A DNA stretch of 64,000 nucleotides, taken from NCBI GenBank assembly GCA_947625435.1, contig CANQOI010000002.1:1043-65042 (forward strand). The letters run 5' to 3'. The DNA comes from an uncultured Clostridia bacterium (lineage in GTDB: Bacteria; Bacillota; Clostridia; UBA1212; UBA1255). This document shows positions 2,993-5,411 of this stretch, one piece after another (within the stretch, counting starts at the first letter, position 1; every line of letters begins with the position of its first letter). The notes beneath the pieces were generated by a model. That model ran no database searches. It saw only the letters and a program-made list of their open reading frames with translations, and had not been told where the DNA came from. The position numbers and the translations under genes were made by a program.

Positions 2993-4276
2993 TTATGTAT
3001 TTGATAACCGTGCCATCATTTCGGAAAAGCATCGATAACTTTCTCCGAAATTGGACTTTACAGCATCCAAAAAATCGGCATCATTCGCTGCATAAGCCTG
3101 AAAGCACTGAGCAAAGAACCGGGAACTCGGGCTGAAAGAAGCCGTTGGAAAATTTGGACGATTTTGAATCTTTCCACCTTTTAATTCTGCAGAAAAACCA
3201 TTTGCGATTTTTTGAATGTTTTTGTCTGCAGATTGTAAATTTCTTGCAATTTCTTTGCCCAACACTTTATCCATGTAAAGTTTATCCTCGGACTGATCCA
3301 ACGCATACAGCCTTCGACCGATGTGAAGCAAAATCTGCCGATCAAAATCAGGATCAGCCGGGTTTAATCCGATAATTTTCAACGTCCTTCCACTTGCGTC
3401 TTTTTGGTAGCCAAACCCGAAATATGCGTTCAGCAATATGATATTGCCCATTTTTTCCATGATGGCGTCACGAAAATCTACATGCAGACCCCGCATGGCG
3501 TGATATAATGCCTCTCTTACCTGTGGGGCATATGGGTTATAGATTCTGTACGCCATGCGTTTCCCGGATTTAAAATCAAAAGTTCCCGATTTTAACCGAT
3601 ATGTTTTTTGCTTGAACTGTGCGTTCGCAGAAGCACGGAAAACAGAAGAATAAGAAACAAAATCAGAGTTTTCATCCGCTGCAAAGGCCGAATCTGCCAT
3701 GTAAAAATCGATTGATGAAAGATAATTTTGCAGACAGGTCAAGACAGAGACTAACGATTGGTTGTTATATGTGATTTCCTCTGCCAAACCGGAGTTTAAT
3801 TTTTTGACTTCTGCGGCGTTTTTCTCTAGAACGTCTATCATCGCAGATAATGCCTTTTGTAATTGCTCGAATTTTTGCTTTTTTTGTTTGATTTCTTTTT
3901 GTAGTTCAACGGATGACTGATAGGACTCAGTCAAGACATCGTACATTTGCCGTGCTTCTTCCATTTTTCTCAAGCAGGCGGATGCGACATCACGGCTATC
4001 TGCGTTATTATACTGCTCGGAATAATACGCCCGTCCAGAGACCGTTTCATCTATGTTGTATTTGATCGACCATGATTTTTTCTGCAAAGATTCATCAAGT
4101 TCAGCAAGCTGAATCATTTGTGTTTCAAGCTTTTCTTTTGCGTCTTCTACAAAGCCTATCATCTCATTGATGTTTGACAATACAGCTTTTGATACAACTA
4201 TCATTTGATTGTATTGATTTTCAGTTTCTTTTGTAAAAGACATAACATAAGAAACTACAGTTGACAGTTCACTCAT
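2993..4276 (-). CDS. 427-aa protein with a ~200-aa helical N-terminal region and a ~220-aa globular C-terminal domain; candidate polymorphic-toxin/LXG-like effector
   Basis: Domain architecture and position (after four small helical proteins, before a small ORF) mimic LXG toxin cassettes. No recognisable catalytic motif. Start overlaps the upstream gene by 8 nt. Confidence 0.4.
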   Translation of the reverse strand: MSELSTVVSYVMSFTKETENQYNQMIVVSKAVLSNINEMIGFVEDAKEKLETQMIQLAELDESLQKKSWSIKYNIDETVSGRAYYSEQYNNADSRDVASACLRKMEEARQMYDVLTESYQSSVELQKEIKQKKQKFEQLQKALSAMIDVLEKNAAEVKKLNSGLAEEITYNNQSLVSVLTCLQNYLSSIDFYMADSAFAADENSDFVSYSSVFRASANAQFKQKTYRLKSGTFDFKSGKRMAYRIYNPYAPQVREALYHAMRGLHVDFRDAIMEKMGNIILLNAYFGFGYQKDASGRTLKIIGLNPADPDFDRQILLHIGRRLYALDQSEDKLYMDKVLGKEIARNLQSADKNIQKIANGFSAELKGGKIQNRPNFPTASFSPSSRFFAQCFQAYAANDADFLDAVKSNFGESYRCFSEMMARLSNT

Positions 4277-4550
4277 CCCGCACCTGCTCGATTCGCATGC
4301 CTAGCACGGCGATTTCCCTGTCGGTTTCCTCGGCATTATAGTTCTTTTTCACCGCCTCTAAACCTCCATGTGAATCCGCCATCATAGCCCATATTTTTTC
4401 AGCGTATATTTTTATGTTTTCATTGAGCTCTGTAAAACTGGCGGACGTAGGATCTGTCCATACCGTTCTCACCTGTTTCAAAGCCCGATCCAGTGCAATA
4501 ATCTGATTACTGAATTCTCCGTATTGTCCATTCATCATGTATTTCCTCAA
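4269..4550 (-). CDS. small helical protein (93 aa), WXG100/Lap-like
   Basis: ~90-aa predicted helical hairpin. Translationally coupled (ATGA overlap) to the neighbouring genes. Confidence 0.45.
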   Translation of the reverse strand: MRKYMMNGQYGEFSNQIIALDRALKQVRTVWTDPTSASFTELNENIKIYAEKIWAMMADSHGGLEAVKKNYNAEETDREIAVLGMRIEQVRDE

Positions 4551-4837
4551 AGCGACAGTTTTGTTCGTGAGCGGATCATTTCTGCCTGTTTTTTGAAATA
4601 TTGCGGATACTTGAACCGTATTGTTTCCATAATTCGGTCGACGGAATTGGTGAGGACTCGAATTTCCTGTAAAATTTTCCCCATCGTTTCATCGTCGCGC
4701 CACTCTAACGAAAGAGTATTCATCTTTTTCATATAGTCATCCATAACGGCTTTTTGTGTGTTGCAATACAAGACAATAAAATCTGCAGTTGTGTCCAGCA
4801 CATGGTCGTCTAAAACCATATTTTCAAACGGATTCAT
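4547..4837 (-). CDS. small helical protein (96 aa), WXG100/Lap-like with a central W-x-D motif
   Basis: LSLEWRDDETMGKILQEI sits where the WXG turn lies in EsxA-like proteins. Confidence 0.45.
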   Translation of the reverse strand: MNPFENMVLDDHVLDTTADFIVLYCNTQKAVMDDYMKKMNTLSLEWRDDETMGKILQEIRVLTNSVDRIMETIRFKYPQYFKKQAEMIRSRTKLSL

Positions 4838-4848
4838 TCAAATTCCCC

Positions 4849-5118
4849 CTAACCTTCGTTGTAGGTGTCAATCCAGCGAATAACCGCCTGACAATACTCG
4901 GACACGGAATCCATCTTTTGTCCGATTTGTCCGATCAAGTCCTGCATTTGCATGGAAAGCTCCAAATAACTGATATAAGCAGGATCTTTCAGGTTTACAA
5001 ATCTGCTGTTTACTTTGTTGTTCAGAGTGTCGGCATTGCGGGAAAGATTTTCATATGCTTCTTTGGAATAATCAATCGCTTTTTGAGCCGCAGTCTTTGA
5101 TAATGTGATTCTTGCCAT
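4849..5118 (-). CDS. small helical protein (89 aa), WXG100/Lap-like
   Basis: All-helical with no TM segment. Same operon. Confidence 0.4.
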   Translation of the reverse strand: MARITLSKTAAQKAIDYSKEAYENLSRNADTLNNKVNSRFVNLKDPAYISYLELSMQMQDLIGQIGQKMDSVSEYCQAVIRWIDTYNEG

Positions 5119-5129
5119 CTGTTTTCACC

Positions 5130-5411
5130 TCAAAATTGAATGTTTCTTCGCGCACGGATCATTTCGATTTTATATTCTGCCTTTGCAATCAGCTGATCGG
5201 TTAATTCGGTGAATTCGTCGGTTTTGCTTTTCAGACTGCTAAACGCAGTCTGAAATCTTTGATAATCGTCGTCGTCCCATGTTCCAGACAATGCGGCAAT
5301 TTTTTTCGCCGCATTGTCGTAATGTTCACGGACAAACAGCGCATGCTGAGATAAAAGTGTTTTGACTTGTTCAAATGATTCTTCGTCTAAATTCAACACG
5401 TCCTGCGCCAT
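5130..5411 (-). CDS. small helical protein (93 aa), WXG100-like with a W-x-D motif
   Basis: ALSGTWDDDDYQRFQTAF resembles the W-x-G...A..AF turn of WXG100 proteins. RBS gggaga present. Confidence 0.5.
   Translation of the reverse strand: MAQDVLNLDEESFEQVKTLLSQHALFVREHYDNAAKKIAALSGTWDDDDYQRFQTAFSSLKSKTDEFTELTDQLIAKAEYKIEMIRARRNIQF

Follow-up and report, generated by a model that had tools for sequence, protein, structure and literature searches.

Which kind of machinery is served by a row of small helical proteins, encoded between a large ATPase and a toxin-like protein, was the question raised by a gene cluster in the window, a 64,000-nucleotide stretch of contig CANQOI010000002.1 from an uncultured Clostridia bacterium. 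The first-pass annotation had read the cluster as four tandem proteins of about 90 residues with W-x-D turns, similar to WXG100 or Lap proteins, upstream of an effector-like gene in a variant LXG toxin locus. The analysis described here points, with moderate confidence, to a mobile polymorphic-toxin cassette of type VII-like character, with s1-s4 and a fifth protein, s5, as its small helical-hairpin subunits.

The genes are located in a low-GC island at about 2.5-11.5 kb of the window, with a GC content of about 40% compared to about 52% in the flanks. The minus strand of the island holds a single tightly packed gene string in the order g366-ATPase-s1-s2-s3-s4-p427-s5, with intergenic gaps of 8-15 nt and an 8-nt overlap (ATGAGTGA) between s4 and the start of the gene for the 427-aa protein p427. 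The ATPase gene (5427-8714, 1095 aa) is followed by s1 (5130-5411, 93 aa), s2 (4849-5118, 89 aa), s3 (4547-4837, 96 aa), s4 (4269-4538, 88-89 aa) and p427 (2993-4276). From a TTG start, the s4 open reading frame (ORF) comprises 4269-4550 (93 aa). The start is more probably the ATG at 4538 or 4535, because it lies behind the ribosome-binding site GAGGAAA and fits the start MNEQYGEF of the homologues. The four tandem small genes were thus recovered as ORFs with tight minus-strand packing and with same-order orthologues in other loci. The count of the first-pass annotation was one short, since a fifth small helical protein, s5 (2687-2977, 96 aa), is encoded after p427.

The window was compared with 11 further neighbourhoods (12 loci in total), in which ORFs were classed with family hidden Markov models (HMMs). 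The order ATPase-s1-s2-s3-s4-large protein, followed at some point by s5, recurred across the 12 loci, and the ATPase gene was directly upstream of the small genes in every one. Exceptions were L002, which lacked s1 and s4, and L009 and L002, which lacked s5; in the other ten loci, s5 was conserved after the toxin gene or genes. Each small gene had same-order orthologues in other loci, with family HMM E-values from 1e-24 to 1e-49. Because of these orthologues across the 11 other loci, s1-s4 are real genes and not chance ORFs. Close homologues of the ATPase numbered 74 (41-74% identity) and were all derived from metagenomes or metagenome-assembled genomes. One of the 11 further loci, L005, was labelled "Clostridia bacterium". 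The exact-sequence look-up of nine ATPase and s3 cluster representatives returned no name in any source database, and no cassette relatives were found in a scan of viral contigs. The window ATPase itself matched no recorded contig in an exact look-up. A scan of genome contigs was dominated by the generic Walker A pattern and yielded two loci, and from metagenomes the s2 alignment retrieved just three short contigs.

Neighbours of the relatives included Tn7-like tnsB/tniB/tniQ, a tyrosine integrase, Mob_Pre, WYL-domain regulators and a reverse transcriptase. Such mobile or defence-type genes were present at 2790-7073 in L002, 8787-9731 and 17871-18818 in L009, 6436-8136 in L017, 4820-9772 in L020 and 909-1985 in L007. 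WYL regulators were located upstream of the cassette in L017 and L020, and so was the reverse transcriptase in L007; L005 had an SNF2 helicase downstream. Genes for Mob_Pre and a type IV secretion system (T4SS) coupling protein were found near the cassette in L009 and L018. The low-GC island, together with the Tn7-like, integrase and Mob genes beside the relatives, indicates a mobile context, and the cassette is a conserved, mobile element of gut Clostridia.

The turn motifs of the small proteins were examined in family alignments. In s1, represented by 11 sequences, W45 and D47 were invariant within a turn of the form E-W-x-D-D/E-D, and a hydrophobic C-terminal tail was conserved. In s3, W46 and D48 were invariant and a Y-P-x-Y-F kink was present. 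The helical s4 showed a V-W-x-D motif, with D29 invariant and W27 nearly so, and a conserved Y67-x-x-x-E71. Both turn motifs quoted in the first-pass annotation were therefore found. Its extension of W-x-D to all four proteins held for s1, s3 and s4 and failed for s2, a helical protein with a conserved L-K-D-P turn and a YC...D motif at the C-terminus. Profile comparison with hhalign marked s1 and s3 as paralogues (97.5%, P 6e-12, 82 columns), and s2 and s5 are probably paralogues as well (82%, P 1e-5). No hhalign link was obtained between s4 and the other small families.

The remote similarity to WXG100 proteins that had been anticipated was detected for s1. Against ESAT-6, CFP-10, S. aureus EsxA and B. 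subtilis YukE, hhalign gave 90% (P 1.6e-6, 72 columns), and the in-register alignment placed W-x-D onto W-x-G. With the s1 profile, the best solved relative in the PDB was Helicobacter pylori HP0062, matched over its full length with an E-value of 1.4e-4, followed by EsxB, EsxA and ESAT-6-like entries at E 0.03-0.5. HP0062 is a solved ESAT-6-like helical-hairpin dimer with WRD in the bend, encoded in a cluster with an FtsK/SpoIIIE gene (PMC3397514, PMC4978471). In Pfam, WXG100 was the most recurrent sub-threshold family for s1, matching seven of the 11 orthologues (E 6e-4 at best). The window copy of s1 scored 14.0 bits (E 0.063) against PF06013, which has a cut-off of 27.3 bits. With the same model s4 scored 18.4 bits (E about 0.0025-0.0027), and two of 11 s4 orthologues matched. 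The E-values with TIGR03930 (cut-off 44.85 bits) were 0.015 for s1 and 0.1 for s4. Consistent matches to Pfam WXG100 were not obtained with s2, s3 and s5, hhalign links to WXG100 were not obtained with s2, s4 and s5, and s2 had no relatives in PDB or Pfam beyond scattered sub-threshold matches. PDB profile searches with s2, s3 and s4 returned nothing meaningful; the s4 profile aligned with MAB_3112 at E 0.42, its W-x-D onto W-K-G.

The AlphaFold2 model of s3, the only small protein modelled, was a helical hairpin (pLDDT 87) with helices at 11-46, 49-76 and 78-95, as the first-pass annotation would have predicted. Its turn was formed by W46-R47-D48, and the kink was located at Y77-P78. Fold searches were consistent with a hairpin and non-specific. 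A hairpin of about 100 residues, as in WXG100 proteins, was thus found in the s3 model and in the solved dimer of the s1 relative HP0062. The W-x-D of s1, s3 and s4 aligns with the W-x-G of ESAT-6, CFP-10, EsxA and YukE and with the WRD of HP0062, so that the tryptophan of the turn is kept and the glycine replaced. At the superfamily level, s1 and s3 are divergent WXG100 hairpins that have W-x-D at the turn instead of W-x-G, and for s4 the relationship appears marginal. To this extent the earlier WXG100 assignment stands; it found no support for s2 and s5, which gave no consistent signal. The suggested membership in the Lap families was not borne out, as DUF3130, DUF3958, DUF5344 and DUF5082 (Lap1-4) had no match at E<=1 among the five small proteins and their orthologues.

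A connection between the small proteins and toxins was revealed by BLASTP within the loci, in which s3-type sequences also formed the first ~90 residues of larger proteins. A HMMER scan of 1.84 billion cluster representatives with the s3 profile recovered 73 clusters (50% identity). Proteins of 200-490 aa made up 43 of these, always with the domain at residues 1-90, and 14 of the 43 had C-termini recognised by Pfam. These were Peptidase_C39_2 (five), ADPrib_exo_Tox (three) and AHH, LHH, WHH, Colicin-DNase, Gln_amidase and ART (one each). Nine of the 14 are standard polymorphic-toxin domains in the catalogue of PMC3482391, the classic set consisting of three HNH-type nucleases, a colicin DNase, ADP-ribosyltransferases and a glutamine deamidase. 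These architectures indicate that the s3 module serves many toxins as an N-terminal domain.

The protein p427 in the toxin slot consists of a two-helix N-domain, a linker and a C-terminal domain at about 230-427. In the AlphaFold2 model, the N-domain was formed by two helices of about 90 residues (2-90 and 95-187; pLDDT 70-90). The C-domain had a pLDDT below 50, and its model was unusable because the homologue search gave only two proteins and hence a two-sequence alignment. The p427 N-domain was combined with ADPrib_exo_Tox in L009 and with other C-termini in L018 and L019, and it stood alone in L001 and L012. Conversely, the C-domain of p427 in the window recurred behind an s3-type N-domain in L002 and L018. 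Judging by these combinations, the slot is polymorphic: its two-helix N-domain (about 190 aa) is conserved, and the C-termini are interchangeable. The earlier description of the downstream gene as effector-like is borne out, p427 being built like a polymorphic toxin with a helical N-domain and a swappable C-terminus. Its profile and model matched only generic coiled coils in the N-domain, and PDB profile searches with the N- and C-domains returned nothing meaningful. A motif H-x-G-H-H was present in the C-domains of the three closest relatives (L005, L007 and L008) and reads H-I-G-R-R in the window. A metallopeptidase reading of this motif was rejected for lack of histidine conservation, the window having GRR and L002 AQH.

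Candidate immunity genes in the relatives were a SUFU-family gene (L005 and L007), small ORFs after ADP-ribosyltransferase (ART) toxins and DUF7675 genes. In the window, an ADP-ribosylglycohydrolase of 391 aa is encoded on the plus strand at 1048-2223, convergent with the cassette. An enzyme of this kind adjoins the cassette in L002-L004 and shared 43% identity with it (E 4e-71). ADP-ribosyl glycohydrolase is a listed immunity protein for Tox-ART-RSE (PMC3482391), and cassette relatives carry ADP-ribosyltransferase toxins in the toxin slot. The gene may be an orphan immunity gene against such toxins, and we infer its link to the cassette. Just past this gene, a terminator-like 25-nt inverted repeat with a T-run (2240-2293) likely separates the convergent units.

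The ATPase comprises a coiled coil (1-200), a degenerate RecA-like domain (205-470), an active domain (471-750) and a second degenerate domain (751-1095). A single Walker A motif, GGTGSGKS, was found at position 509, with LFVIVDE as Walker B. The Pfam family FtsK_SpoIIIE was matched at 1.6e-29, and the NCBIfam models EccCa and EssC at 1e-34 and 2e-30, both under the cut-off. The PDB profile search gave Thermomonospora curvata EccC (4nh0) at 1e-33, EccC5 at 4e-24, B. subtilis YukB at 1e-19 and FtsK at 5e-9. These scores place the protein in the EccC/EssC branch, closer to the ATPases of type VII secretion systems (T7SS) than to DNA pumps. Both flanking domains were homologous to the active domain by hhalign and lacked a P-loop (205-470: 70%, P 4e-5; 751-1095: 34%, P 4e-4), and GIHFILSLDNP aligned with GITLLWASQNIP. 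The assignment of the third domain is weak because it had no PDB match on its own. No transmembrane helix was detected in the window ATPase or in its 74 homologues. The hydrophobic maxima of the family fall in the RecA core, compared to N-terminal peaks of 1.9-2.5 in the EccC matches of the same search. The ATPase is accordingly predicted to be soluble, with one active P-loop domain between two degenerate ones. Sensor-like LRR_5 and Sel1 repeats were fused to the ATPase in the proteins P0023 and P0026. The PADLOC models SspH and mad8 matched only its generic FtsK domain, no other cassette protein matched PADLOC, and PHROGs gave generic FtsK and gamma-domain matches only.

An optional first gene of the cassette, g366 (8751-9851, minus strand, 366 aa), encodes a protein with a central FtsK-gamma winged-helix domain at residues 221-281 (PF09397, E 6e-22). 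It was present in four of the 12 loci including the window, L005 and L007 having it at the corresponding place, and absent from the other eight; in L008 (P0058), the gamma protein was fused to the ATPase N-terminus. A promoter-like site on the minus strand (9880-9908; TTGATT-17-TATAAT with extended TG) was located about 30 nt upstream of g366. It is a consensus match only, and the regional density of such sites was no higher than in shuffled sequence.

Membrane segments were found at the other end of the cassette in the relatives. Ten of the 12 loci ended in one to three proteins sharing an N-terminal domain of about 75 aa (MTFSEIIKND...YHQRLN...), a membrane-protein family that we named tmN. 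The N-domain is followed by a charged KE-rich linker, zero to six predicted transmembrane helices (L008 has none) and a C-terminal region that varies, with PDZ, LRR_5, DUF6273, zinc ribbons or polytopic bundles. The tmN genes were located at 10610-12525 in L005, 9593-11507 in L007, 15084-15914 in L002, 17181-17948 in L012, 17791-19383 in L017, 9369-9980 and 20390-21628 in L018, 18065-20972 in L019 and 16470-18059 in L020. None of the eight cassette products of the window contained a hydrophobic segment of membrane-spanning length. Where relatives start the tmN gene, downstream of s5, the window holds an ORF of 19 codons (MMFSEWMLKRIHRSKRMKM, 2614-2673, minus strand) behind a ribosome-binding site. 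Its position and first five residues agree with tmN and the HMM test was not significant; it is possibly the stub of a deleted tmN gene. The window ATPase, in addition, lacks about 92 residues after residue 110 by an in-frame deletion, a segment present in 29 of 29 aligned homologues. Because of this deletion and the missing tmN gene, apart from the possible stub, the window copy looks incomplete. The cassette may have decayed here and may be inactive or dependent on components encoded elsewhere.

A mechanism can be proposed in which the small proteins would pair mutually in the manner of Esx pairs, for example s1 with s2 and s3 with s4. They would also line the long hairpin at the toxin's N-terminus, like Lap proteins on LXG domains, and form helical bundles. 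These bundles could display a C-terminal signal, for which the hydrophobic tail of s1 and the Y-x-x-x-E of s4 are candidates. A degenerate domain of the ATPase hexamer would read the signal and the active domain would power export. The tmN proteins of the cassette would recruit the ATPase and anchor it at the membrane, as suggested by its lack of membrane helices. A more far-reaching and tentative version is a self-contained, eleventh kind of type VII-like machine, mobile among gut Clostridia and encoded by 8-10 genes. Its soluble three-domain ATPase would be recruited by tmN, or the W-x-D hairpins would themselves serve as a channel in the way of EsxE/EsxF, and it would export toxins with an unnamed W-x-D N-domain.

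Several observations weigh against the assignment to a type VII-like toxin cassette. The four canonical WXG100 references used with hhalign were entered by hand, no small protein reached the curated WXG100 threshold of PF06013 or TIGR03930, and the WXG100 similarity of s2, s4 and s5 was marginal at best. The N-domain of p427 did not match LXG (PF04740) by Pfam (E<=1), PDB profile or fold search, and thus the LXG part of the first-pass annotation was not upheld. By profile searches and alignment, the C-domain had no recognisable toxin fold or conserved catalytic residues. In the window, no obvious immunity gene followed p427 and no tmN gene was found, so that the membrane partner of this copy is missing. 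We infer complex formation, recognition by the ATPase and export, and no channel-forming component was established.

Three other explanations were weighed against the toxin cassette. The cassette could be an accessory substrate-loading module for a canonical membrane T7SS elsewhere in the genome, with an EccCb1-like ATPase that docks on EssC or EccCa together with toxin/WXG bundles. The ESX-1 ATPase is split into EccCa1 and EccCb1, and the EccCb1 structure was among the PDB matches of the cassette ATPase, which has no transmembrane helix and matches the EccCb and EccCa models. The window cassette has no membrane gene either. However, dedicated membrane proteins are encoded in ten of the 12 loci themselves, Tn7-like and integrase/Mob elements carry the cassette on its own, and T7SS core genes were absent within 10 kb in every locus. 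Moreover, the DUF-like domain and the active D1 equivalent of the ATPase correspond to the EccCa part. Such a module is considered unlikely. Slightly less weight is given to a cytoplasmic conflict or anti-phage (abortive infection) system, in which incoming DNA or protein would be detected by the ATPase, by way of its FtsK-gamma partner or of LRR/Sel1 repeats, and bundle-held toxins would be freed without export. In FtsK, DNA is bound by the gamma domain, the ATPases P0023 and P0026 carry fused LRR_5 and Sel1 repeats that resemble sensors, and all eight window products are soluble. The defence-island or mobile context with Tn7-like genes, integrases, WYL regulators, reverse transcriptase and SNF2 helicase agrees with this explanation, as do the matches of the PADLOC SspH and mad8 models to the ATPase domain. 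These matches, however, are confined to the generic FtsK domain and leave the other cassette proteins unmatched. AHH, LHH, WHH, colicin DNase, glutamine amidase and ART domains together with SUFU and ADP-ribosylglycohydrolase characterise exported polymorphic toxins (PMC3482391). The cassette includes membrane proteins with large ectodomains, the ATPase is nearest to secretion ATPases, and relatives were absent from viral contigs.

Very improbable is a DNA-transfer accessory of the mobile element, composed of a TraB/FtsK-like pump for double-stranded DNA and a gamma-domain specificity factor, with the small proteins as unrelated structural or regulatory subunits. In its favour, the gene for the FtsK-gamma protein opens the cassette, P0058 combines this protein with the ATPase in one chain, L009 and L018 have genes for Mob_Pre and a T4SS coupling protein close by, and the cassette is set in a low-GC island. 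Yet the gamma protein occurs in just four of 12 loci, EccC/EssC proteins are matched by the ATPase with far better scores than FtsK or coupling proteins, and the toxin fusions to the s3 domain would have no role in a DNA pump.

Further features were observed around the cassette in the window. At 4-360 (plus strand) lies the 3' end of a gene for a BspA-like LRR_5 protein; LRR_5 also recurs as the tmN ectodomain in L001 and L017, and in P0023 it precedes the ATPase as an N-terminal fusion. An imperfect direct repeat of 62 nt (plus strand, 902-963 and 10139-10200; 77% identity) with an exact 21-nt core (AACACACAGAAGCGGAAATAC) flanks the ADP-ribosylglycohydrolase gene and the entire cassette, and could point to a junction formed by insertion or recombination. 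The upstream end of the low-GC island (10261-11625) holds four genes: a DUF3791 gene (10261-10485), a gene for 81 aa without family assignment (10498-10743), a truncated-looking DUF3990 gene (10748-11092) and a divergent gene for a Cro/C1-type helix-turn-helix protein (11314-11625).

Current descriptions of type VII secretion centre on a membrane-embedded EccC/EssC hexamer. An ATPase without anchor in a widespread cassette raises the question how WXG-tagged toxins would cross the membrane, and the compact cassette of 8-10 genes offers a test bed for it. To the annotation of toxin loci in gut Firmicutes metagenomes, the cassette could contribute two modules, the W-x-D N-terminal toxin domain and the cytoplasmic domain of tmN.

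Among known systems, the LXG/Lap complexes of the type VIIb system (T7SSb) comprise TelA-LapA3-LapA4, TelC-LapC1-LapC2 and EsaD-EsxBCD (PMC10801868, PMC9600955, PMC10653861). They share with the cassette an EssC-type ATPase and small WXG100-like helical proteins directly upstream of a toxin with a helical N-domain and a polymorphic C-terminus. An export-arm-like motif in one helper is also common to both, FxxxD or YxxxD/E there and Y67-x-x-x-E71 in s4. In contrast to these complexes, the cassette has no sequence match to LXG, DUF3130, DUF3958, DUF5344 or DUF5082 and four or five helpers instead of two or three. The p427 N-domain is predicted to be a plain two-helix hairpin, unlike the nine-helix LXG domain with two subdomains. 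Compared to T7SSb EssC, the ATPase lacks the FHA domains, the transmembrane helices and one ATPase domain. EssA, EssB, EsaA, EsaB/TsxB and EccB/D/E were not found among the called genes and Pfam matches of the 12 loci. The locus is not a canonical T7SSb LXG locus, because its ATPase has no membrane segment and none of the 12 cassettes examined showed a homologue of EssA, EssB, EsaA or EsaB.

A precedent for a soluble T7SS ATPase is mycobacterial EccCb1, the soluble half of the divided ESX-1 ATPase, which binds the C-terminal tail of a WXG100 substrate and needs the membrane protein EccCa1. EccCb1 consists of the distal domains, whereas the cassette ATPase holds the DUF-like and the active domain. 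In EsxE/EsxF, the WXG100 pair itself forms the membrane channel for the toxin (PMC7810871). Among the T7SS subtypes a-j, EccC/EssC is membrane-bound in T7SSa and T7SSb, and all new subtypes have "the canonical ATPase (TsxC)" (Garrett, Higginson and Palmer 2024, PMC11217815). Most subtypes have the ubiquitin-like TsxB, and several occur in Clostridia (PMC11217815). The cassette resembles them in the EccC/EssC-family ATPase, the WXG100-type protein and the adjoining toxin, immunity and Lap-like genes. It differs in its soluble ATPase, and a TsxB-like gene was not seen in the loci examined.

This kind of T7SS-like cassette is known computationally and experimentally unstudied. "Mobile versions of T7SS" were described computationally by Zhang, de Souza, Anantharaman, Iyer and Aravind in 2012 (PMC3482391, Table 1 footnote 6). 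The class has a YueA-like ATPase with three HerA/FtsK domains, the central one alone being active, and stand-alone WXG-type proteins (PMC3482391). It includes the H. pylori cluster of HP0062 (WRD hairpin) and HP0066 (FtsK/SpoIIIE) with an HNH/EndoVII nuclease (PMC3397514, PMC4978471). The cassette is matched to this class by the architecture of its three-domain ATPase with a single Walker A in the middle domain, and by the stand-alone s1-s5 and the mobile setting. Compared to the HP0062/HP0066 cluster, it occurs in Clostridia, encodes five small proteins that fall into at least three sequence classes, uses two kinds of toxin N-domain and includes a membrane-protein family of its own. Small WXG-type hairpins with a W-x-D turn, HNH-type nuclease toxins and mobility are shared by both.

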